Part shown: positions 4,158 to 57,749 of the stretch, piece by piece
Layout: each line of letters opens with the position of its first letter
Numbering within the stretch: position 1 is the first letter of the stretch
IMG/VR virus record: IMGVR_UViG_3300014204_000132
From: a virus
Lineage: Duplodnaviria > Heunggongvirae > Uroviricota > Caudoviricetes
Reading direction: 5' to 3' (one strand)
DNA: 64,000 nucleotides
Made by a program: the position numbers and the translations under genes
Notes under the pieces: model-generated
Database searches by the model: none
Seen by the model: only the letters and a program-made list of their open reading frames with translations
What the model was told of the DNA's origin: nothing

Positions 4158-4396
4158 TGGATAAATATATAGACGAATTATATAAACTGGACTTTACTTG
4201 TGAAAGTCCAGTTTCTTTTGTTTTAAAAGTTAATGGCGAAAGGGAAATGTTTGTTGAAACAAACACTCGTTTCAATTCATTGTGGGTTAGAATGTCACAA
4301 GGCCAATATAGAATGATTAAAAAGGTAGAAAAAATAGAAGATTTAATACCTTTTATCAAAAATGAAGTCAGAGCATTAAAAATCAGAAATCTCTAA
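4157..4396 (+). CDS. hypothetical small protein
   Basis: Translationally coupled to the upstream gene. Ends ...EVRALKIRNL, a weak version of the shared C-terminal tail. Confidence 0.4.
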   Translation: MDKYIDELYKLDFTCESPVSFVLKVNGEREMFVETNTRFNSLWVRMSQGQYRMIKKVEKIEDLIPFIKNEVRALKIRNL

Positions 4397-4729
4397 TATT
4401 TTTAATCTTCTCAAAATCTGTTTTATATTTCGATTGATTTCAGGTTTATCCCTTGTTATATTATCCAAATTGTTTAATAATTTAACATTCTTATTTTGCT
4501 CATCTAATATTTTGTTTAATTCTTTTTTTGTTATAGCAACATTTGGATATATTACAGTTACTTCATATTTTTCAGATGGTATAACAATCATTTTAAATTC
4601 AGTATTATCAGTATTATCATTTAAATCGACCAGTATTTTTTCTAAATAATACTTTAGAACTTCTTGGGTTTGACTCGCAGAAATACCTACGGGATATGTA
4701 CACTTTAATATAACTAATTTTTTATTCAT
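4376..4729 (-). CDS. hypothetical small protein with shared C-terminal tail (RRLKILEISDF)
   Basis: 117 aa. The C-terminus matches the R-[KR]-L-K-I motif family. Confidence 0.45.
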   Translation of the reverse strand: MNKKLVILKCTYPVGISASQTQEVLKYYLEKILVDLNDNTDNTEFKMIVIPSEKYEVTVIYPNVAITKKELNKILDEQNKNVKLLNNLDNITRDKPEINRNIKQILRRLKILEISDF

Positions 4730-5021
4730 AGAGCGAATCTATTTTATTTTTTCTCTTATTTTGAATAAAAATTTTATATAGTTCATGTAATGTAATATAT
4801 TTAGGGTTTTTATTTCCTACTAATTCGAAAATAACACCAGAATTTTCTATTAATTCAAATTTATCCATATCAATTTTAAATAATTTAAATGATATTATTG
4901 GTTCAAAAACCATCATATCAATAATATAATACTCATTAATAATATGAACTACAACAGGTCTATACGGAGATTCGTGATTTATATGTTTAATTAATTCTTT
5001 ATAGTGAAGACAATCTTTCAT
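4722..5021 (-). CDS. hypothetical small protein with C-terminal RKNKIDSLYE
   Basis: 99 aa. Its C-terminus is near-identical to that of 8085..8573 (RKEKIDSLYD). Confidence 0.45.
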   Translation of the reverse strand: MKDCLHYKELIKHINHESPYRPVVVHIINEYYIIDMMVFEPIISFKLFKIDMDKFELIENSGVIFELVGNKNPKYITLHELYKIFIQNKRKNKIDSLYE

Positions 5022-7668: not shown

Positions 7669-7872
7669 TTATTTTAAAATTTTTTCAATTTTAATTTTCC
7701 GAATTTCATTTATACTATTTGTGTAACATGTGAGAAATTCAACAATAGCTATTTGTATGACATTTTTACAACCATCTTCGACTAAATAAACATCATTTCC
7801 ATCGCATTTAACATAGTGATATTGTTTGTATGTATGTCTATTATAAAATATATTATAATTACTCATCATCAC
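7669..7872 (-). CDS. small protein with shared C-terminal tail (EIRKIKIEKILK)
   Basis: 67 aa. Overlaps the upstream paralogue by 14 nt. Confidence 0.45.
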   Translation of the reverse strand: MMMSNYNIFYNRHTYKQYHYVKCDGNDVYLVEDGCKNVIQIAIVEFLTCYTNSINEIRKIKIEKILK

Positions 7873-8092
7873 CCAAAATCTGTTTTATTTTCAATCTCCG
7901 TATTTCATTTTTATCTGCTGTGAATCTCTCATAAAAATTTGGAACACTGAAATATTTTTTCTTACTTGTCCCAACTGGTCTTAAAGTTGCCTGATGTTTA
8001 TTTATAGATAAAACATAATATTCTCTTTCTGTATGTGTATCATATATAATTTTATTAGAATCTATTAAAAAATAAACTGATTGGTTAATCAT
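7859..8092 (-). CDS. small protein with shared C-terminal tail (EIRRLKIKQILGDDE)
   Basis: 77 aa. The C-terminus matches the tail of 51962..52264 (RKLKIKDILGDE). Confidence 0.45.
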   Translation of the reverse strand: MINQSVYFLIDSNKIIYDTHTEREYYVLSINKHQATLRPVGTSKKKYFSVPNFYERFTADKNEIRRLKIKQILGDDE

Positions 8093-8573
8093 ATAAACTA
8101 TCTATTTTTTCTTTCCGAGAAGAAATTTTTTCAAATTCTTCATAAGTTTTTAAAGTCAAATTATAATTATCTGTTTTTGCATATATAATTATTATAGTTC
8201 TAATTGACATTAACGATTTTTCAAACTCTGATTTTAGTTTATCAGAGCCATTGATAGATAATTCAATTAATTTTTTATATATGTCACCGTTTAATTTTTT
8301 ATATATGTCACCGTAAATATCATTAATACTTTTCAGTTCATTTGCCAGATATTTTGCATATTTTTTTAAATATGTTTGATTTGTTGAATCAATGATAAAA
8401 TTAGAAATCATTTTAGGTGTAACATTAAGATGACCTGATATAATTTCACGATGTATGACTTTTTTATCACACCAAATTTCAACACAGTCCCCACCATCAC
8501 CATCACAATTATTTCTAAGAGTCCAACCATATTTTTTGTTATTTATCGTTATTTCTCTGAATTTCTTTTTCAT
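8085..8573 (-). CDS. hypothetical protein with internal 8-aa tandem duplication
   Basis: 162 aa. NGDIYKKL is repeated twice (24-bp tandem duplication at 8271-8318). C-terminus RKEKIDSLYD. Confidence 0.5.
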   Translation of the reverse strand: MKKKFREITINNKKYGWTLRNNCDGDGGDCVEIWCDKKVIHREIISGHLNVTPKMISNFIIDSTNQTYLKKYAKYLANELKSINDIYGDIYKKLNGDIYKKLIELSINGSDKLKSEFEKSLMSIRTIIIIYAKTDNYNLTLKTYEEFEKISSRKEKIDSLYD

Positions 8574-9481
8574 AATAAATATTTATCTGATTTATTATAT
8601 TTTTCCAATAACCTTATTGCAGAACTACTAATATGTTCATATTCTTTATCACAAAATATAGAAACAACCTTGATATTAGGTTTTAAATCCTGAAGAAACC
8701 TATACTGTGTTAATTCATATTGCAGGTCTGTAATGTTTCGCAATCCCCTGATTAAAGTAACATCATATTCAAGGGTGTCAAGAAAATCCGTCAACAACCC
8801 ATCATAAAATTCTACTTGTCTGGATTTTATTATTTCTGGTAATTCAATTAAAACATTATTTTTTTCAGTGTTAATACCCCTTGCAATAATTACTTTATCA
8901 AATATTTTTTCCGCTTTTTCTAAAATATTCAAATGTCCTCGGTGAAAAGGCGAAAACGTACCTGCATAAACAGCAATATTTGGCTTTTTATATTTAATAT
9001 AATCTAAAAACTCTGGTTTCAAATTATAATTTTCAAGAATTTTAAGTCGGTGTTCTTTATATTTTTTGTAATCGATAAATTGATATTCTTTGAATATTGC
9101 ATCTTCAAATTTAATGAATGTTTCAATATCTGAATATAATACATCCAAGTCCAATCTACATAGTAACGTAGACAAATAACTATTTGGAACATGGTCTTTA
9201 GTATCCAAAATAGCATATTTTATTTCATCATTCTCTACATATAGCCTAAATAATTCGGCTGATTTTTCTTCATTATCCTTGTTTTTAGGATTATAAATTA
9301 TATCATGAAATATAATAGCTAATAATAATTCATCTGATAATATACCTTGTTCTTGGGCTTTTAATAACATATATTCAATATGATTCCAGTTATGATAAAA
9401 TCGGTGAGGTTCATCATATCGAAGAAGTTCATTTGGATTGATATTAAACTTCTTAAAAACTTCCAATACTAATTCTTTCAT
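8570..9481 (-). CDS. HD phosphohydrolase / cytidylyltransferase-family nucleotidyltransferase fusion
   Basis: N-terminal HD motif (HNWNHIEY...FHDIIY) and C-terminal AVYAGTFSPFHRGHLNILEKA (HxGH nucleotidyltransferase motif, PPAT/NMNAT-like). Confidence 0.65.
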   Translation of the reverse strand: MKELVLEVFKKFNINPNELLRYDEPHRFYHNWNHIEYMLLKAQEQGILSDELLLAIIFHDIIYNPKNKDNEEKSAELFRLYVENDEIKYAILDTKDHVPNSYLSTLLCRLDLDVLYSDIETFIKFEDAIFKEYQFIDYKKYKEHRLKILENYNLKPEFLDYIKYKKPNIAVYAGTFSPFHRGHLNILEKAEKIFDKVIIARGINTEKNNVLIELPEIIKSRQVEFYDGLLTDFLDTLEYDVTLIRGLRNITDLQYELTQYRFLQDLKPNIKVVSIFCDKEYEHISSSAIRLLEKYNKSDKYLL

Positions 9482-16624: not shown

Positions 16625-19600
16625 TTAATTTAATTTTTTAAGTTCTCTTTTTAACTCCGATAAATCATCCAGCCAAAGTTCATGTAAAGTTTTTTTAGAA
16701 TATTCTTCCAATTCTTTAATTTTTTCAGCTAATTGATTTTTTAAATTATCATATTTTTCTTTGGAAAGAGAATATATCACCATATTTAATAGATAATCAT
16801 ACGAATCATCTATTTTATCCAAATTATTTTTTATACATTCCTGTTCAATAAATTCTTTATTTTTATTGGATATAACGATTTTATTTTTAATTATTAAATC
16901 TATAAAATTACACCTGTTATTAAGTATCTGTATATCTCTTTTGAATTTATCAATTACAGAATTTTTTCTTTTATCATAATAATCTAATCTGATTTCCATG
17001 AAATCATCTATTACTTCATAAATGTCCCCGTATAATTTGATTTTATCATTCTTATCAAACAAATTCATGTTCGAATTATTGATATACGATGTTAAATCAA
17101 ATATTTTCAAAATATAATTAGGGGTAAATAATTTTAAAGATTCTTTAGGTAATTGTATTATAATATTGACGTTCTCATCTGTACTATGCTTAGTATAATT
17201 CAATATAACTTTAGTATCAATCAATTCATTTAATTTGAAATAAAATTTATCATACCACAATCCAATCGGTAATTCAGTTATTTTTAACCTATCATTATGT
17301 AACTCAAATGTACCCTCTGTAACATATCGGTCTTTATCCAGATATATTTTACCTTTAAATTTATTATAATATGGATTAATATTTTTTCTTGGATTAGCTG
17401 AACCTTTTATTTTTTTTTCAATATAATCAACCAAATCAACAATATTATATTTTGGAACTAATGTTGACCAACCAGTTCCAATACCTTCTGCCCCATTCAC
17501 TAATACCATTGGAATAATAGGTATATAAAATTTAGGTTCAATCACATATCCATCATCATCTAAATATTCTAAAACTGCATTATCTTCTTTCCTGAAAATA
17601 TAATCTGTTATAGGAACTTTATTTGTAAAAATATATCTCGAAGCAGATGAATCTTTACCACCCATTGAACGAGTTCCAAATTCTCCAGATGGTATAAGCA
17701 AATTTATATTATTTGAACCAACAAAATTCTGAGCCATATTGATAATTGTTTGTTCAAGTGACTGTGGGCCATGATGATAAGAGGTGGCTTCAATAATAGC
17801 ACCTGATAATAAACCCACTTTAACTTCATCTTTATAATTCTTTTTATTTAAAGTATAAAGTATTTTTCTATGAGTTGGTTTAAATCCATCAATAACACTT
17901 GGTATTGACCTAATATTATCGGCCATACTAAATTCAATAAGTTCATCATTTATAAATGAATCATAATATGTTTTTTTACCAAATTTATCTACTTCATTGT
18001 TTGGTTTATATTTCAACAACCAATTTTTTCTATCTTCAGCCCTATTTTTACGAAAAGCCATATCAATTAAATCCTTGGTTATTTCTGGATTTCGATAATT
18101 AAAACGTATTAGATGTTTATCAATTTCTTTAAAGAATTCTTTTGATTCATGTGGTTCTATTGTACCAAGTCCTTTATAATATTTTACAAACCAATTATCA
18201 ACATTTACAGTTTCTTTCCATCTCCTGTATTCATTTAATTTATAAAAATATTTAACAACAGCACCTTTTTTTACTTTAACAATTGGTGTAACAAATTCGT
18301 ATATAAAGTCAGCTTCAAGTAAATATGGGAAAAATGTTTCAAACAAATTAATCAACAACCCTTTAATATGTGAACCATCATGGTCTGCATCGGTAAAAAG
18401 AACAACTTTACCATATCTTAATTCAGAAGTATTTGTATATTTTTTACCAATTTCTAAACCTAAAGCTGATATAATACCCTTAATTTCTTCATCTTCTAAT
18501 ATTTTTTTAACTGCTATATCTCTAACATTTAAAGGTTTTCCTTTCAATGGAAATGCACCATAATAATCTCTACCAGTCACTGAAAATCCTCTTAAACAAG
18601 AAGAAAGTGCTGAATCCCCTTCAGTTAAAAATAATAAACACATTCTACTATCTTTAGTACCAGCTCTATTAGCATCATCTAATTTTCTCACTTTAACAGT
18701 TCTACCATTCTTATTTTTAACAGCTTTCTGTAAAGCTAATTGTTCTTTGAGTTCAATATAATCAATAATTTCCTGAGTAATATCTGATTTTAATATTTTC
18801 TTAATAAAATTATCTGATATTTCAATATCTTTAAATGATGATATTTTGGTATTTAATATTTCTTTAACCTGACTGTCAAATTCTGGATTAAACACTTTAG
18901 TATTTAAAAATAAAAATATTTTTGATTTAATATCATTCGGATTAATCTCGAATTTATTTCCTCGTGAAAGGGATGATTTTAGTTTACTTGTTATTTGATT
19001 TATAGCATGATTTACATGAGTTCCACCTTGTAATGTAGCCAGACCATTAACCAATGAAATTTGTTCAAATGAATCAGAAAAAGTTTTCATAACACCTATT
19101 TCCCATAAATCGTTTATTTTTTCATAAATAATTTCATGGTTATCGAGCATGAATAATTTCATATAATCTTTAAATGATTTTATACTAATCAGATTATTGT
19201 TGAAATATACTTTCACATTTGGATTATATGCAGCTATATCAATAGTTCTCTTAATCATAACTGATTTAATATCATCAATTAATTCTATAAATCCGAACCT
19301 TTCGTAATCTGGGAGAAAAGATATTTTAGTAAATTTTTTTGAAGATACTCTAATGTGTGGTTTTGGTAATTTACCTTTTTTATCCGATGATAAATTATCA
19401 GTAAATACTTGTTTGTAATAATTTTTACCATCAGCAGTTTCAACTATAAACTCTTTAGAAAATATATTACAAGCTTTTGCACCTATACCATTTCGACCAC
19501 CCCCTATTCGTTGTTCTGTATCATCATAATTTTCACCCGTAAGTAAATGTCCAAAAATTAATTCTGGTACATATACTTTTTCATCTTTATGAATAACAAC

Positions 19601-19918
19601 AGGTATACCATCACCATCATTCCAAACAGATATTTTATTATTATCAATTTCAATTTTAATAGATTTAACTCTACCTGTCTTTACACTGTGGTCAGAAGCA
19701 TTAGTAATAATTTCATCAAATATTTTTATTAATCCAGCATTATAATTAATTTCTTTCTTAACTATTTTTAAATTTTCAAAATTATCTATATTATCAACAG
19801 TGAATACCATTCTTCTTTCAGAATTAATTGAACCAATATAAGTATCACTACGCTGTAAAACGTGTTCTCTCTGGGAGAGTTTCTTATATTGTTCTTCAAT
19901 CTTCTTTTTCTTAACCAT
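16625..19918 (-). CDS. type IIA DNA topoisomerase, fused ATPase plus breakage-reunion subunits
   Basis: GHKL N-box IFDEIITNASDH, GGRNGIGAKACN, Toprim LTEGDSA...DADHDGSHIKGL, PLKGKPLNV, DGFKPTHRKILY and the active-site tyrosine motif SRYIFT. 1097 aa. Confidence 0.9.
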   Translation of the reverse strand: MVKKKKIEEQYKKLSQREHVLQRSDTYIGSINSERRMVFTVDNIDNFENLKIVKKEINYNAGLIKIFDEIITNASDHSVKTGRVKSIKIEIDNNKISVWNDGDGIPVVIHKDEKVYVPELIFGHLLTGENYDDTEQRIGGGRNGIGAKACNIFSKEFIVETADGKNYYKQVFTDNLSSDKKGKLPKPHIRVSSKKFTKISFLPDYERFGFIELIDDIKSVMIKRTIDIAAYNPNVKVYFNNNLISIKSFKDYMKLFMLDNHEIIYEKINDLWEIGVMKTFSDSFEQISLVNGLATLQGGTHVNHAINQITSKLKSSLSRGNKFEINPNDIKSKIFLFLNTKVFNPEFDSQVKEILNTKISSFKDIEISDNFIKKILKSDITQEIIDYIELKEQLALQKAVKNKNGRTVKVRKLDDANRAGTKDSRMCLLFLTEGDSALSSCLRGFSVTGRDYYGAFPLKGKPLNVRDIAVKKILEDEEIKGIISALGLEIGKKYTNTSELRYGKVVLFTDADHDGSHIKGLLINLFETFFPYLLEADFIYEFVTPIVKVKKGAVVKYFYKLNEYRRWKETVNVDNWFVKYYKGLGTIEPHESKEFFKEIDKHLIRFNYRNPEITKDLIDMAFRKNRAEDRKNWLLKYKPNNEVDKFGKKTYYDSFINDELIEFSMADNIRSIPSVIDGFKPTHRKILYTLNKKNYKDEVKVGLLSGAIIEATSYHHGPQSLEQTIINMAQNFVGSNNINLLIPSGEFGTRSMGGKDSSASRYIFTNKVPITDYIFRKEDNAVLEYLDDDGYVIEPKFYIPIIPMVLVNGAEGIGTGWSTLVPKYNIVDLVDYIEKKIKGSANPRKNINPYYNKFKGKIYLDKDRYVTEGTFELHNDRLKITELPIGLWYDKFYFKLNELIDTKVILNYTKHSTDENVNIIIQLPKESLKLFTPNYILKIFDLTSYINNSNMNLFDKNDKIKLYGDIYEVIDDFMEIRLDYYDKRKNSVIDKFKRDIQILNNRCNFIDLIIKNKIVISNKNKEFIEQECIKNNLDKIDDSYDYLLNMVIYSLSKEKYDNLKNQLAEKIKELEEYSKKTLHELWLDDLSELKRELKKLN

Positions 19919-21725: not shown

Positions 21726-22280
21726 TTGATAATGAAATCCAGAAAATTTATATTTTCTTTAAACGAGTGGTTGAATGAACAATTCAACCCACATAAATAT
21801 GAATCATTCTCAGAACTTACAGAAAAAGATTTATATGATATTGGTAAATGGGGGTTAGAAAACGATTTTTCAACAAGTGGTGCATGGGATGGTGCTGATA
21901 ATTTAGAAGAAGCTATAAAAAATATTGTTGATGGTTTTAAATTATTACTCAAAGATAAATTTCCCGATGGTTTTAATGAAATACCTAATATTATTAAAGT
22001 ATATAGATTTATTATATTAAAATCCCCAGAAGAATTAAACACAGAACATTTAGGATATTCATGGTTTTCTAATCCTGAAAGAATAACGAATCCTTATTTT
22101 AAACAACAAATGTGGCATTTAAAAGAACCCAATTTATATTTAATAACAGCAGAAATTACTGAAAGTAAAATTGATGTTCCAAGAAGTTTATTTCAACGAG
22201 ATATGGTCTGGGTAGAAAATGAAATTGTTTTGAAAGACGATACAAATATTAAAATATTATCTTTAGATAAAATACACTAA
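21726..22280 (+). CDS. hypothetical protein
   Basis: 184-aa ORF of normal composition. The competing minus-strand ORF 21614..22042 is low-complexity. Confidence 0.45.
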   Translation: MIMKSRKFIFSLNEWLNEQFNPHKYESFSELTEKDLYDIGKWGLENDFSTSGAWDGADNLEEAIKNIVDGFKLLLKDKFPDGFNEIPNIIKVYRFIILKSPEELNTEHLGYSWFSNPERITNPYFKQQMWHLKEPNLYLITAEITESKIDVPRSLFQRDMVWVENEIVLKDDTNIKILSLDKIH

Positions 22281-22957
22281 TACACATCACCATCCAATAA
22301 ATTATTAATTTTTAATTTCCTTATTATTTTAATATATTCAATACCAGTACATTGAAAATATGTCTGTCTTTTATTATGTAATATACGTTCATACATCAAT
22401 GTTAAATATTTTGAACGCTTGATATCTCTGTATACCATACAATAGTGATAATTAATTAATGAATATTCAATATCAAATATTTTAAACATACGATAATATA
22501 CATCTTTTTTTACTGACTTATAATCACTTGGAAATAATTGCATAAAAGAAAAACCATTTAGATTATGTTCAAAATAACCATTATTATATCCATATCTAAT
22601 ATCATAATCAAATATTTTACCATCATATATCTTACTTATACCATAAATAATAGTTATATGATGTTTATTACTGGTAATTGTCGGTATGGCATTAATTATT
22701 CTTAAATAATCTATTTTATATTTATTATTTATTCTAAAATATACTGATTCGGATTCTTTTATATTATGAAATTTAATAAGGTCGGTATTAAATCCTATAT
22801 TCTTAAATAAATTAATAAATTCTGAATATATTAAACATATATATGTCTTTTTAAATTCAGTAGTAACTTTTATTTCTATACTATTTAACTTTAATAAAGA
22901 TTCATATCCTCGTCTATTATAAAGTACGAATTTAATTTCTATAACATTTACATTCAT
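22277..22957 (-). CDS. hypothetical protein
   Basis: 226-aa ORF. Confidence 0.45.
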   Translation of the reverse strand: MNVNVIEIKFVLYNRRGYESLLKLNSIEIKVTTEFKKTYICLIYSEFINLFKNIGFNTDLIKFHNIKESESVYFRINNKYKIDYLRIINAIPTITSNKHHITIIYGISKIYDGKIFDYDIRYGYNNGYFEHNLNGFSFMQLFPSDYKSVKKDVYYRMFKIFDIEYSLINYHYCMVYRDIKRSKYLTLMYERILHNKRQTYFQCTGIEYIKIIRKLKINNLLDGDVY

Positions 22958-29865: not shown

Positions 29866-30573
29866 TTATTCATCATCTTTTAATATTTCTTCAATCTTTA
29901 ACAACCGTTCGTTTCCGAATAATTGAAATTTACAATATACGTCTTTGGGGTCATTGTTTATTGGTGATGAGTCCAAACTGTTTATACTAAATGTACCATA
30001 TTTTAAGGTTAAATCTGGATTTAGATAAGCGTAACCATTATCATAACTGGAATTAGAATTTATATTAGTGAATGTAATATAATACAATTCTTTATTTTGA
30101 TAACCAGTTGAATAATCCTTTTCAACTTTCACTTGTTTATTTGTTATTTTACAAGAAGTAAAATAATTTGAGCCTATATCATCCCCTTTTATCTCATACC
30201 TTTTAGGGTTTGAAATAAATTTAACATGAGTATAATTATTCAATGGTTTCAACGATAATGTTATAGGTTGAATAGGTAATTGTTTAGCCATGATTTCTGA
30301 TGTTATCATAGCTAACCTATCTGATGATTCGATTAATAAATCAAAATTATCAATATTTTGAGTTTTTAAGAATTCTTCAACTTTATTCAAATATTCTTTA
30401 TTAATAGTAATTCGGTTTGAAAACCCACCACCAGTATTAATAGAGGTGTGTAATTGTTTAGATTTTATCACAGGAAAATACGACAACTCTTTTTCGACTT
30501 GTAAGACTATTACCATTCCACCTGAACCAGAAGTTTGGTAACTTATAATATATTCGAATATTTTTCCTTGCAT
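29866..30573 (-). CDS. hypothetical protein
   Basis: 235-aa ORF. Confidence 0.45.
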   Translation of the reverse strand: MQGKIFEYIISYQTSGSGGMVIVLQVEKELSYFPVIKSKQLHTSINTGGGFSNRITINKEYLNKVEEFLKTQNIDNFDLLIESSDRLAMITSEIMAKQLPIQPITLSLKPLNNYTHVKFISNPKRYEIKGDDIGSNYFTSCKITNKQVKVEKDYSTGYQNKELYYITFTNINSNSSYDNGYAYLNPDLTLKYGTFSINSLDSSPINNDPKDVYCKFQLFGNERLLKIEEILKDDE

Positions 30574-33535: not shown

Positions 33536-33778
33536 TTACACCAGTTCTTCTAATATTTTTATTAATTCTTCCAATATAAATTGTGATTTATATGGCATTT
33601 TAGATTCAACTTTATCAGCTTCAGTGTTTATTTTAGCAATTACATCTTTAGATATTTGTCGTGCAACATAAGCTAATTCTGGATATCTGTCAGCACCTGA
33701 TATAGGTTTACCTTTAGAATCAAGTCCATTATCACGTTCTTCTTCTGTATAATTTTCAAACTTCATAATATCTTCCAT
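33536..33778 (-). CDS. hypothetical small protein
   Basis: 80-aa ORF. Confidence 0.4.
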   Translation of the reverse strand: MEDIMKFENYTEEERDNGLDSKGKPISGADRYPELAYVARQISKDVIAKINTEADKVESKMPYKSQFILEELIKILEELV

Positions 33779-51918: not shown

Positions 51919-51961
51919 TGAAAAGTTAAATATTATTTATAATTTTGATAAAATATCTAAT

Positions 51962-52264
51962 ATGGGAAAAATTAATAATTTTTATGATATTGTAACTGTT
52001 GTTTTAGATAGATTTAAAAAAAATTTAAATGAACCAATTAATTCTTTTTCAAAAGAAATTGTAAAAGAATTAGAAAATATTGGATATTTTGATATGAAAC
52101 AAATATCATTCTCTTGTGATTATAACGCAGATGACCCAGCCAGTATTTATTTAAGTATTCAACCACAGAATGATTACACAAAATATATTATGAAAGTTTA
52201 TTTTAATAAGTTTAGTAGGAAATTGAAAATTAAAGACATATTAGGCGATGAATTATATAGATGA
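51962..52264 (+). CDS. tail-motif family small protein, array member 1
   Basis: 100 aa. Ends FSRKLKIKDILGDELYR. Overlaps the next gene by 17 nt. Confidence 0.5.
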   Translation: MGKINNFYDIVTVVLDRFKKNLNEPINSFSKEIVKELENIGYFDMKQISFSCDYNADDPASIYLSIQPQNDYTKYIMKVYFNKFSRKLKIKDILGDELYR

Positions 52265-52574
52265 TGTATATACCAGATATGTGAGAGAAAAATATATAGT
52301 TTTTCAATCTAAATTCAATAAGAATTGTTCCAGAAAAGAATTTAAAAGATATTTAGAACAAGATATAAAAACTTATGTGTTGGAAGATTTAAAAATAATA
52401 GGTATTAATTTCAAAGATGTTAAGTTTAATTTTGATATAGTTCTTAGGTACGATTTCACTCTGGGTACATTAAGAATATTGGCTGATAATAAAACTATTA
52501 ATTTATTTCACAAGAAAAAGATTGAAATTGAACGATTATCAAAACTAAAAAATATATTTGAAGATGACATCTAA
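52248..52574 (+). CDS. tail-motif family small protein, array member 2
   Basis: 108 aa. Ends KKKIEIERLSKLKNIFEDDI. Confidence 0.5.
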   Translation: MNYIDDVYTRYVREKYIVFQSKFNKNCSRKEFKRYLEQDIKTYVLEDLKIIGINFKDVKFNFDIVLRYDFTLGTLRILADNKTINLFHKKKIEIERLSKLKNIFEDDI

Positions 52575-52929
52575 TATTGATTTTTCTGATTCAAATTGTC
52601 AATTCATTCATCAGAATGTTAATGATATTTTTAAACGACATATTATATGTTTTGATTTTGAGTCTGTTGATATTTTGAATATTAAAGAAATTATTAAAGA
52701 AAGAATAATCTATATGGTGTCTGGTATGGTTAGTGATTTTAGAGAAGAAGATTTTCGTTTTGATGTTGAATTAAATGTAGATTATGAAAGTATGGCTGAT
52801 ATATTCCAATTAAAGATAAACTTACACCCATTACACCCATATGCGAATATGATATTTAAAACAAAGAATTTTCACATTTTATCAAGAAAACTGAAAATTG
52901 AAGAAATTATCAACGATGAATTATCATGA
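52558..52929 (+). CDS. tail-motif family small protein, array member 3
   Basis: 123 aa. Ends SRKLKIEEIINDELS. Confidence 0.5.
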   Translation: MKMTSNIDFSDSNCQFIHQNVNDIFKRHIICFDFESVDILNIKEIIKERIIYMVSGMVSDFREEDFRFDVELNVDYESMADIFQLKINLHPLHPYANMIFKTKNFHILSRKLKIEEIINDELS

Positions 52930-53248
52930 GTCTAATGTAGAATTTATAAAGTCGGAACTTTACAGTGAAATTATTAATATATCGCCACGTAGAAATAATA
53001 CTTGGTATCCTATTGAAAACCCAGAACGAAGAATGTTATACAAATTAATTACAAATTTTGTATATAGTTTAACTAATATTTATATAAAACATTGTACTAT
53101 GATTTTTTATTTAAGCGATAGCACATTTAATATTAGAATTTATCCTGTTGATAATATATCAATTACTCTTTTTAATAATACTGATTTAATTTATCTGAAA
53201 AAGGTAAAAGATAGGAAGAAGAAACTCGAAAAAATATTCTCACAATGA
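52898..53248 (+). CDS. tail-motif family small protein, array member 4
   Basis: 116 aa. Ends DRKKKLEKIFSQ. Confidence 0.45.
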   Translation: MKKLSTMNYHESNVEFIKSELYSEIINISPRRNNTWYPIENPERRMLYKLITNFVYSLTNIYIKHCTMIFYLSDSTFNIRIYPVDNISITLFNNTDLIYLKKVKDRKKKLEKIFSQ

Positions 53249-53592
53249 ATTACTTTAATAAAAATATTTTTTATTTGATTGAATTTTTTAGAAAAGAGGT
53301 GGTGAATCTTTATAGCGAATCGAGTAAATCCTCATTATCACTAAAGTCTAAAGAAGATTATATTAAAGTTCGCATATTACAACATATTAGATTTTTAACA
53401 AATGAACTTATTTACGGGTTTGTTGTAAAAGTTGATTTTATTGGTAATGATGATTACTTTTTATTTATATACGATATGGATAAACTTGCAACAAATGTTT
53501 TTTATAATTTTGATTTTGACCAGTTGAAAAAACAAAAAGATAGAAAAATTAAAATAGAAGAAATATTTTCCGATGATAGGTGTACATGTTAA
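53245..53592 (+). CDS. tail-motif family small protein, array member 5
   Basis: 115 aa. Ends DRKIKIEEIFSDDRCTC. Start overlaps the previous stop (ATGA). Confidence 0.5.
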   Translation: MNYFNKNIFYLIEFFRKEVVNLYSESSKSSLSLKSKEDYIKVRILQHIRFLTNELIYGFVVKVDFIGNDDYFLFIYDMDKLATNVFYNFDFDQLKKQKDRKIKIEEIFSDDRCTC

Positions 53593-55205: not shown

Positions 55206-55649
55206 TTAGCTTCCACCAACGGCAGACATCAATCCAGTAGGATTTGACATATTTCCAGTTTTGGCATAAAGTTTACCACTTTTAGGGTCTACACTATAAA
55301 TTTTAGATAATTTAGCATTAACCAAGGCATCATTATAGGCTTTTATAAAACTAAATAAAACATCTGGTTGACTTTTAGGATTTTTAATAAATTCGTTCTT
55401 TTTAGCTATTGCTATATCACCTGATTTTGTATTAGGATTAGATAAATTGAAAGAATTTACGATACTTCCAATTAATTTATTCTGTATTAGATTATCAATA
55501 TCAGCATCTTCTAACTTTCCTTTAGCAGCTAAATCAGTTATAAGTTGTTTCTGTTCTTTATTCATGCCGAATAACCCTTCATTGGTTTCAGATGTATCCA
55601 CATCTAATGAATATTGTTCGAATGTCTTTAAATGTTTTAAATCTTTCAT
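55206..55649 (-). CDS. putative packaged internal protein (CTS-like N-terminus MKDLKHLKTFEQYS)
   Basis: 147 aa. N-terminal basic-hydrophobic-F-E motif as in 56666 and 57180. Confidence 0.45.
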   Translation of the reverse strand: MKDLKHLKTFEQYSLDVDTSETNEGLFGMNKEQKQLITDLAAKGKLEDADIDNLIQNKLIGSIVNSFNLSNPNTKSGDIAIAKKNEFIKNPKSQPDVLFSFIKAYNDALVNAKLSKIYSVDPKSGKLYAKTGNMSNPTGLMSAVGGS

Positions 55650-56665: not shown

Positions 56666-57163
56666 TTATTCATTATAAGGAGTAACTGAAATTATTTTGA
56701 CTTCTGAATCTGGGAATAATGTTATTTCGTTTTCATTTACCCACACACTATTAGTTAATAGTGTTCTTTCAAGGTCTATATTTGATTTATCTGTTTCTAT
56801 CTCATATAGAAACATAGGCGAATCATCATCAATACCTATATCAGCTATAAAGTGGTCATCTATATACATAGGGTCTGTTGTATAATGGTCACCCAAATCA
56901 AATGTATTAACTTCTTCTATATTTTCAGAAGCAAGAACCCGAAATAAAGTTATGGGGTTGGGTTGTTTTTGTATATAGTGAACATGTTCTATCAAATGTT
57001 CTAAAATTTCATCATCATCAAAAATACTATCACCAGAAGTACCTATTTTTTCTAAGAACGCTTCGACATCTTCATCTGTTATATCATTAATATCAGCAAT
57101 TTTTATTTTATCTATTATAGAACCACCACGACTGAAGGTTTCGAAAAGTTTAAGATGTTTCAT
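56666..57163 (-). CDS. putative packaged internal protein (CTS-like N-terminus MKHLKLFETFS), highly acidic
   Basis: 165 aa, very D/E-rich. Confidence 0.45.
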   Translation of the reverse strand: MKHLKLFETFSRGGSIIDKIKIADINDITDEDVEAFLEKIGTSGDSIFDDDEILEHLIEHVHYIQKQPNPITLFRVLASENIEEVNTFDLGDHYTTDPMYIDDHFIADIGIDDDSPMFLYEIETDKSNIDLERTLLTNSVWVNENEITLFPDSEVKIISVTPYNE

Positions 57164-57179
57164 TTTTATATTTTTATTT

Positions 57180-57749
57180 TTAATAACCGACTTTGTATAA
57201 TTTTCGGCTGGTGTGTAAATCTAATCCGTAATCTATTAAAACTGCTTTATCATTTATCTCACCCCAAGATGATATGGATGCTAAGTCATTAGCATCCAAA
57301 TTGTATTTATTTACCAAATTTCCCAATTTAACAGCAAATGGTTTTTCGATATAAAATCTTTCCATTTCATCACCACCCCAACCTTTTAACCAATGCATAA
57401 ACCCATTGAATTGAAATGTTGTTAATTCTTCAAATCTTTCTACTGAAATCATTTTAGCTTTTTCTTGAATTAACCACTCCCCTTTTTCACTATACTCTAA
57501 AACAATAGCGAGGACATCAGAAAATTCTTTATCTGTCCCTGCTTTTATTTCGGTTATATTTTGAGCTATACCTTTGAGGTTTTTAGCTAATTTTAATACT
57601 CTGTTTTCATCCAAAACATATACAGCTCTGGCTGTTCCAAACTTTTTATCTGGTATTTCTCGTTGAACTACATCTTTTCTTTGTTTGAAAGTTTTTAAAC
57701 CTTTCAATGTTTCTTGGTTAAAATGTTCAAATAACTGTATAAATCTCAT
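57180..57749 (-). CDS. putative packaged internal protein (CTS-like N-terminus MRFIQLFEHFNQE)
   Basis: 189-aa ORF. Confidence 0.45.
   Translation of the reverse strand: MRFIQLFEHFNQETLKGLKTFKQRKDVVQREIPDKKFGTARAVYVLDENRVLKLAKNLKGIAQNITEIKAGTDKEFSDVLAIVLEYSEKGEWLIQEKAKMISVERFEELTTFQFNGFMHWLKGWGGDEMERFYIEKPFAVKLGNLVNKYNLDANDLASISSWGEINDKAVLIDYGLDLHTSRKLYKVGY

Follow-up and report, generated by a model that had tools for sequence, protein, structure and literature searches.

According to our analysis, a stretch of 64,000 nucleotides from the genome of a virus of the class Caudoviricetes (IMG/VR record IMGVR_UViG_3300014204_000132), hereafter called the window, encodes a set of small proteins which end in a common short peptide, the C-tag, with the core R-x-x-K-[IL]-x-x-[IL]-[FLI]. 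The C-tag terminates all five products of an array of overlapping genes at positions 51962 to 53592, and it is found in roughly 8 to 17% of the genes in a clade of 0.4- to 0.7-Mb Bacteroidetes-type megaphages, on proteins which are otherwise unrelated. We think it probable that the C-tag is a portable C-terminal docking helix which recruits unrelated accessory proteins to one common putative receptor.

The five-gene array

A previous reading of the window, made from the letters of the DNA and the translations of its open reading frames (ORFs) and here called the sequence-only reading, had described five consecutive, mutually overlapping plus-strand ORFs with a common C-terminal tail. The ORFs and the C-termini quoted for them were confirmed; public assemblies of the same genome (678 kb) include the five array genes and call them in the same way. 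That the genes overlap also stands, but the extent reported for the overlaps (4 to 35 nt) had to be revised, since with the public ATG starts of ORF3 (52564) and ORF4 (52916) they measure 17, 11, 14, 4, and 20 nt. The array and the box upstream of it are as follows.

51940..51947, plus strand: TAATTTTG box (Bacteroidetes -7 consensus TAnnTTTG), 22 nt before the ATG of array gene 1, within the 43-nt gap after the helicase gene; suggestive only
51962..52264, plus strand: array gene 1 (ORF1), 100 aa; C-tag RKLKIKDIL at nt 52217-52243, 6 residues before the end; identical to public protein P0005
52248..52574, plus strand: array gene 2 (ORF2), 108 aa; C-tag RLSKLKNIF at nt 52533-52559
52564..52929, plus strand: array gene 3 (ORF3), 121 aa from the ATG at 52564 (TTG at 52558 also possible); C-tag RKLKIEEII at nt 52885-52911; public protein P0001
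52916..53248, plus strand: array gene 4 (ORF4), 110 aa from the ATG at 52916 (TTG at 52898 also possible); C-tag RKKKLEKIF at nt 53213-53239; public protein P0004; paralogue of gene 5
53245..53592, plus strand: array gene 5 (ORF5), 115 aa; C-tag RKIKIEEIF at nt 53542-53568; public protein P0003

When the five proteins are aligned, the R, K, and I of the tail are invariant and the bodies are 14 to 29% identical. The array had been described as paralogous throughout. This applies to ORF4 and ORF5, whose tail-less bodies are matched by hhalign with a probability of 96% (E = 1e-8), but not to ORF1, ORF2, and ORF3, for which the probability stays below 2% both among themselves and against ORF4 and ORF5; with orthologues included in the hhalign comparison, the paralogues are ORF4, ORF5, and one extra copy found in the relatives. 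No match above threshold to curated families (Pfam, PHROGs) was obtained for any of the five proteins, the match of ORF2 to DUF4987 being below the cut-off (25.3 versus 28.7 bits). An exhaustive HMMER search of an ORF2 profile against 1.84e9 representatives recovered its own cluster only, besides a plant NB-ARC/LRR protein which we rejected as a chance match, since it matches through its leucine-rich repeats (LRR). A scan for sigma-70-type promoters around the array gave 51 matches, with 43 expected.

Two closer relatives in IMG/VR, L006 (640 kb) and L012 (422 kb), whose helicases are 86 to 88% identical to that of the window, retain the array with gene gain and loss, array gene 1 being missing in both. 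Every array orthologue in these two genomes keeps the tail, including all of its constrained positions, while the bodies drop to 30 to 71% identity; for ORF2, the tag is retained in nine of nine orthologues (public proteins P0006 to P0009 and those in L006 and L012). The earlier proposal of a docking-peptide-like tag on diversifying small proteins is borne out in this respect, and no orthologue without the tail was encountered in either genome.

Position, enrichment, and distribution of the C-tag

The sharing of the tail by the five array genes is real, but it is not peculiar to them. The pattern R..K[ILV]..[ILV][FILVY], at 9 to 20 aa from the C-terminus, is present in 14 of the 83 window genes, with a single occurrence elsewhere (mean of shuffles, 0.07; Fisher P = 2e-17). 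The tag is thus carried by 9 or 10 further window genes on the opposite strand, encoding proteins of 67 to 235 aa, depending on whether a probable variant is counted. A six-frame scan of the window likewise located the motif in further opposite-strand ORFs, 10 to 17 residues ahead of their stop codons, and a profile of the tail also recovered instances outside its training set. The further carriers are listed here.

4376..4729, minus strand: probable variant carrier, 117 aa; RRLKILEIS-DF; profile score of 10.5, does not match the strict regular expression
4722..5021, minus strand: carrier, 99 aa; RKNKIDSLY at nt 4728-4754
7669..7872, minus strand: carrier, 67 aa; RKIKIEKIL at nt 7675-7701
7859..8092, minus strand: carrier, 77 aa; RRLKIKQIL at nt 7874-7900
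8085..8573, minus strand: carrier, 162 aa; RKEKIDSLY at nt 8091-8117
9478..10140, minus strand: carrier, 220 aa; RKAKIKSII at nt 9490-9516
10512..10814, minus strand: carrier, 100 aa; RMKKLKELF at nt 10539-10565
11418..11684, minus strand: carrier, 88 aa; RKLKIEELF at nt 11445-11471
22277..22957, minus strand: carrier, 226 aa; RKLKINNLL at nt 22295-22321
29866..30573, minus strand: carrier, 235 aa; RLLKIEEIL at nt 29881-29907; the next gene is convergent, so that no coupled gene lies downstream

The helicase of the window is 46 to 51% identical to those of the uncultured megaphages LR756501 to LR756504 and LR745206 (635 to 735 kb), which are members of a clade named Mahaphage with predicted Bacteroidetes hosts (PMC7162821). 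LR756502 (642 kb), assembled from 13 pieces, was analyzed whole. Its motif lies 9 to 22 residues from the end, with a peak at 10, in 78 of 938 genes, versus 24 occurrences anywhere else, and controls yielded 0.85 (whole-protein shuffles) and 1.6 (last 25 aa shuffled). The consensus in this genome is [ILV]-R-[DEN]-x-K-[IL]-[ND]-x-[IL]-L, followed by 0 to 3 residues. LR745206 and LR756504 are tag-rich as well, and no C-tag was detected in the 100 kb of LR756501 or the 50 kb of LR756500 which were sampled. The first 50 kb of Tenacibaculum phage PTm1, the nearest cultured relative according to helicase similarity, contain neither the C-tag nor the N-terminal tag described below. In IMG/VR, a back-translated DNA pattern matched at least 119 loci; among the 124 matches listed, 92 are in frame with a stop located 9 to 22 codons on, and the C-tag was found in at least about 90 more viral contigs. 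LKKQKDRKIKIEEIFSDD and EIRDKKIDEILK are examples of 20-residue peptides containing the tag.

The conservation concerns the peptide and not the nucleotide sequence, as the sequence-only reading had maintained, since different synonymous codons are used at the conserved positions. In the window, the invariant Arg is encoded by AGG, AGA, CGA, or CGG and the hydrophobic positions by several Ile and Leu codons, and the invariant R and K of the LR756502 carriers are encoded with the same codon preferences as the genome at large.

Modularity and properties of the carriers

The C-tag is modular, being joined to bodies which have nothing detectable in common. No significant mutual similarity was found among the tail-less bodies of the window carriers, and 206 further carriers from other loci fall into 156 BLAST clusters. 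A BLAST search of the window carriers against LR756502 returned no homologue, whereas core genes match at 30 to 55% identity. The description of the array as a family of five paralogues is therefore too narrow, since the tag is clade-wide and occurs on unrelated proteins. A Pfam census of two sets of carriers (93 and 100) gave single matches, all of them different, to riboflavin kinase, a Tad2-like protein, a Zn-ribbon, NUMOD4, and several domains of unknown function (DUFs). Most carriers are ORFans, and their PHROG matches are unannotated. Carriers with FEN, PhoH-like, and ThyA-like domains were discarded as chance matches of the regular expression inside native domains.

In LR756502, the C-tag is present in 77 of 782 proteins shorter than 300 aa versus 1 of 156 larger ones. 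The length of the carriers ranges from 61 to 622 aa; they are acidic and show no enrichment in transmembrane (TM) segments. Internal copies of the tag, 50 to 140 residues from the stop, in proteins of two modules or with an extension at the C-terminus, are also conserved and form islands between homologues which are 30 to 43% identical overall (L072/L122 and L043/L101), as expected for a binding helix; the C-terminal position is thus preferred but not obligatory. The L072 and L122 proteins (IMG/VR) are built of two modules, each ending in a C-tag (one internal, one terminal), both conserved at 43% identity, and look like fused adjacent tagged genes.

In the first 50 kb of LR756504 (L033), about 20 genes encoding proteins of 70 to 110 aa have in common an extended 18-residue C-terminus, F-[WIM]-T-[LI]-x-E-[YH]-R-K-x-I-I-x-[DE]-L-[LI]. 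This family harbors an L-x-E site, of the type cut by the T4 prohead protease, two residues before the tag in 13 of 24 cases (54%), while among carriers generally [LIV]-x-E is found two residues upstream of the tag in 8 to 10%.

Predicted structure of the tag

AlphaFold2 places the tag in a C-terminal helix in both array proteins modeled. In ORF2 (predicted local distance difference test [pLDDT] score of 65) it lies within the terminal helix 91-106, and in ORF5 (pLDDT of 48) the terminal helix spans residues 91-109, with low confidence. The two models present the same alpha-alpha-beta-beta-alpha-alpha order. On such a helix, and judging from the sequence logo, the constrained residues, i.e., the hydrophobic one at position -1, R at 0, K at 3, and the hydrophobic ones at 4, 7, and 8, would lie on one face.

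An N-terminal tag and the upstream motifs of the two gene classes

A second terminal peptide, the N-tag, was recognized in the same phages. In LR756502, its motif MK[HY]LKxYK[IL]FES is found at the N-terminus, in loose form, in 126 of 938 genes (~13%), with 14 expected, and the N-tag is present in the window (as MKHLKLFETFS) and in all five megaphage genomes sampled (as MKYIKEYEEFILE in LR756500). It is carried by many unrelated enzymes, among them PPK2, RNA ligase 1, CCA/polyA polymerase, NUDIX, methyltransferases, and Acb1-like proteins. C-tag and N-tag exclude each other, with no gene bearing both versus 10.5 expected (P = 8e-6). The N-tag closely resembles the capsid-targeting sequence (CTS) of phage T4, MKTYQEFIAE (PMC8442874), including its I-x-E site; in the T4 peptide, residues 4 and 7 serve targeting and residues 8 and 10 serve processing (PMC9026906). 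The N-tag genes of the window are the following.

14782-15186, plus strand: N-tag gene
15973-16596, minus strand: N-tag gene
33536-33778, minus strand: N-tag gene
55206-55649, minus strand: N-tag gene
56666-57163, minus strand: N-tag gene
57180-57749, minus strand: N-tag gene

The head module of the clade is of the T4 type, with a portal, a Peptidase_S77-like protease, and a Gp23-family capsid protein. An upstream motif, AATATATA, directly precedes the terminase, portal, protease, and capsid genes and heads a co-directional run with the sheath gene; since it precedes all the structural genes identified, it could be a late promoter or a 5' signal of the late class. This motif, also written (T)TAATATATA, is 17- to 19-fold enriched in LR756502, where it starts 10 to 14 nt before the ATG, and 6- to 7-fold enriched in the window, where it lies ~28 to 29 nt upstream of 14782, 15973, 33536, 44617, 55206, 55831, and 57752. 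The C-tag and N-tag genes differ sharply in this respect. Among LR756502 genes with an upstream gap of their own, the motif is present in 1 of 16 C-tag, 33 of 42 N-tag, and 73 of 283 untagged genes, and in the IMG/VR loci listed, in 5 of 30, 33 of 42, and 188 of 522, respectively (C-tag versus N-tag, P = 2e-7); the window follows the same contrast. A second upstream motif, TATATTTG(TA), matches the Bacteroidetes -7 box, whose consensus is TAnnTTTG (PMC4747536, PMC8748976), and this host-type box is associated with C-tag genes in LR756502 (P = 0.013). On this evidence, the C-tag genes would constitute a non-late class, and the N-tag genes appear to be co-regulated with the head genes, which suggests protein packaging on a very large scale.

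A portable docking helix as the probable role of the C-tag

If the C-tag is a docking helix, it would comprise about 9 to 12 residues, with a hydrophobic residue before the core and 0 to 8 mostly acidic or polar residues after it, and would form the end of a C-terminal alpha-helix which exposes its constrained residues on one face and its variable residues on the opposite one. It would be appended to many unrelated, small, fast-evolving accessory proteins in a subclade of the Mahaphage-type megaphages, and the five-gene array would be one operon of such tagged proteins. The conserved face would bind one common receptor and thereby bring many effectors, in a repertoire which keeps changing, to the same machine or place. 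The receptor would probably act outside prohead assembly, since the tagged genes are without the upstream signal of the head, tail, and N-tagged genes; a candidate would be a phage or host hub of non-late proteins, e.g., a chaperone or unfoldase adaptor or a replication or takeover complex.

The encapsulin cargo-loading peptides and the encapsulation peptides of bacterial microcompartments provide a precedent of this kind, as they are short, terminal, often C-terminal and helical, and dock unrelated cargos on one shell protein. They differ from the C-tag in their motifs, which in encapsulins are Gly/Ser-rich, and in serving a handful of cargos rather than about 10% of a proteome. In the literature searched, we found no description of terminal motifs of this kind in megaphages, and the C-tag points to an undescribed protein-sorting or docking code.

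Several points weigh against the docking helix. The binding of a receptor and the nature of that receptor are read from sequence patterns, and the carriers might use the tag to associate with one another instead. The structural models behind the helix are of low confidence (see above), the gene sets derive from a crude greedy ORF caller, and the upstream motif by which the C-tag genes are classed as non-late has a putative function. Furthermore, the association of C-tag genes with the TAnnTTTG box was not replicated in the IMG/VR loci (2 of 30).

Alternative explanations

We deem it unlikely, while worth serious attention, that the C-tag is a C-terminal capsid-targeting signal by which a large set of small proteins is docked on the core or shell of the prohead, to be packaged and then injected along with the DNA; it would be the C-terminal equivalent of the T4 CTS, of the C-tails by which scaffolds or proteases bind the capsid protein, or of the encapsulin cargo-loading peptides. 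A head module of the T4 type exists in the clade, and the presence of a T4-CTS-like N-tag in the same genomes makes packaging by terminal tags plausible. The internal proteins of T-even phages are diverse anti-defense proteins with only the CTS in common (PMC3012670), which recalls the fast-evolving bodies and the conserved tag described here; one carrier is Tad2-like, i.e., a member of an anti-defense family, and in the LR756504 family an L-x-E site of the protease type lies two residues before the tag. However, that site is rare beside the tag in carriers elsewhere, the C-tag genes are without the motif which precedes the terminase, portal, protease, and capsid genes and ~79% of the N-tag genes, and the carriers are acidic whereas the T4 internal proteins are basic (PMC8442874). 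The mutual exclusion of the two tags fits two destinations equally well.

The T4 CTS, described by Mullaney and Black in 1996 as cited in PMC8442874 and PMC9026906, resembles the C-tag in being a short terminal peptide, portable between cargos, which is the sole conserved element of diverse, fast-evolving small phage proteins. It differs from it in occupying the extreme N-terminal ~10 to 19 residues, in being cut at an adjacent (L/I)-x-E site, and in belonging to late head assembly; the C-tag has a different sequence, lies 9 to 22 residues from the C-terminus with no enrichment at other positions, generally has no cleavage site beside it, and, as far as the upstream motif indicates, is probably not co-expressed with the head genes. 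The N-tag of these megaphages is therefore the better counterpart of the T4 CTS. A helix at the C-terminus, with basic residues which are essential, attaches the scaffolding protein of P22 and the scaffold and protease of herpesviruses to the capsid protein of these HK97-fold viruses. Such scaffold helices are confined to one or two dedicated assembly proteins. The C-tag helix, in contrast, is shared by hundreds of small proteins with no mutual relationship, and it is missing from the end of the LR756502 protein which is the putative scaffold/protease.

It is improbable that the carriers have no common partner, their tails being the best-conserved last helix of one hyper-divergent superfamily or a generic helix for self-oligomerization. 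Many carriers do lie in tandem arrays, ORF4, ORF5, and some neighbors are paralogous, ORF2 and ORF5 have the same predicted order of secondary structures, and in one LR756504 family about 18 C-terminal residues are conserved. Nevertheless, the carriers vary tenfold in length and form the 156 unrelated clusters mentioned above, and the tag follows unrelated known folds (flavokinase, Tad2-like, Zn-ribbon); moreover, proteins which self-associate independently would not be expected to keep R and K invariant when the carriers are non-homologous and the phages deeply diverged.

We give very little credence to a signal acting in translation or on the nucleotide level, be it a ribosome-binding site, promoter, or coupling element serving the overlapping gene downstream, or an effect of the nascent peptide on the terminating ribosome. 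Inside the array, the motif begins at a constant 31 to 32 nt ahead of the next ATG, a tightly coupled gene (within 10 nt or overlapping) follows 71% of carriers versus 55%, and the peak of the motif-to-stop distance in LR756502 is sharp. The constant spacing is, however, a property of the array and not of the signal, since carriers in LR756502 have their next start anywhere from 16 to 282 nt beyond the motif, and 13% of them, as well as the window gene at 29866-30573, have no co-directional gene downstream. In addition, the invariant residues are encoded by alternative codons in the proportions usual for the genome, the stop follows at anything from 9 to 22 residues, and conservation extends to the internal copies, far from the stop.

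We attach just as little credence to the possibility that the extreme C-terminus forms an amphipathic helix which targets membranes, as in MinD and FtsA. The motif is indeed short, C-terminal, helical, and composed of basic and aliphatic residues, but the strong amphipathicity and net positive charge of such helices are absent: its hydrophobic moment (0.26) does not exceed that of random C-termini (0.31) and is well below that of the MinD membrane-targeting sequence (0.45), its mean hydrophobicity is negative (-0.28), the window tags have a net charge near 0 with acidic residues after the motif, and TM segments are not enriched in the carriers.

The least probable explanation is the one advanced by the sequence-only reading, namely, a tail binding a sliding clamp (gp45/PCNA-like), as the tails of the T4 replication and late-transcription proteins gp43, gp33, and gp55 or the PIP (PCNA-interacting peptide) boxes do, since, the C-terminal location and a loose resemblance of the h-x-x-h-[FL] spacing after basic residues to PIP-like motifs notwithstanding, the ~300 carriers include no polymerase, ligase, nuclease, sigma factor, or other replisome or transcription protein, the family-B DNA polymerase (PolB) of LR756502 ends in ...VVMDIFGGSGF without an R..K[IL]..[IL][FL] motif, a tag on 8 to 17% of genes, almost all of them encoding fewer than 300 aa, is far too frequent for a clamp, and the tag is absent from the sampled regions of LR756501 and LR756500, whose replisome is assumed to be common to these phages. 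Clamp-binding tails, including the beta-clamp motif, are C-terminal docking peptides with hydrophobic residues three apart; they have no counterpart of the invariant R and K, and the C-tag carriers are an order of magnitude too many. One FEN-like carrier proved to be a false match of the regular expression.

The LR756502 PolB itself is seemingly encoded by two genes ~130 kb apart (120483-121907, minus strand, and 253853-255391, plus strand). The end of its C-terminal piece may be a real clamp-binding tail, its ...MDIFGG being presumably akin to T4-type clamp tails; a PDB search with the PolB piece matched only archaeal PolB and pol zeta and gave no confirmation.

Genome context

The window has a GC content of 25%, and the array is flanked by a gene for a UvsW-like helicase and a DUF6734 gene. 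In L012 (10001-12097), this helicase is apparently split by an intein-like insert (...HNYFANNICVSNC). Between helicase and array, replacing ORF1, L006 (11560-13251) and L012 (12099-13949) contain a gene for a protein of 563 to 616 aa with repeated KYG-type motifs and a nuclease-like C-terminus, which resembles a homing-endonuclease-type insertion.

Some genes differ in their organization between the window and LR756502. The type II topoisomerase of the window (16625-19918, minus strand) is one fused protein of 1097 aa (GyrB-like, Toprim, and topoisomerase IV A domain), whereas in LR756502 it is encoded by two genes on opposite strands (615 and 447 aa). Amid the minus-strand cluster of C-tag genes, 8570-9481 (minus strand) encodes a protein of 303 aa whose residues 7-150 and 168-300 match two separate LR756502 genes, which indicates gene fusion or splitting between the relatives. 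In LR756501 (735 kb; L001 7913-9920, L031/L032), a different motif, DPYGEE[ND]W, recurs: in a tandem family it lies close to the N-terminus (MIKKFKIFE...DPYGEEEWE), and other small proteins have it at their very C-terminal end (...EDPYGEENWEK).

Implications for megaphage biology

As a tentative extension, which we regard as possible rather than likely, these phages may use a two-address peptide code covering about 20% of the proteome. The N-tag (~13% of genes, expressed with the head genes) would load diverse enzyme cargo into the capsid, and the C-tag (8 to 17%, non-late) would send small hyper-variable effectors to a different, dedicated receptor, e.g., a phage-built compartment, a takeover hub, or a machine for timed turnover. 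Such two-address sorting, if true, would have no known bacteriophage counterpart, and the N-tag, if it is a true CTS, would mean that enzymes are packaged by these phages in a diversity without precedent.

The small ORFans of huge phages number in the hundreds and offer no handle for their study; a conserved 9-residue tag on about one-tenth of them is a testable one. The tag supplies a simple sequence rule for functional or temporal classes of megaphage genes and might serve, like the T4 CTS, as a portable targeting peptide. Finding its receptor could reveal at one stroke where dozens to hundreds of unknown proteins go or what becomes of them.

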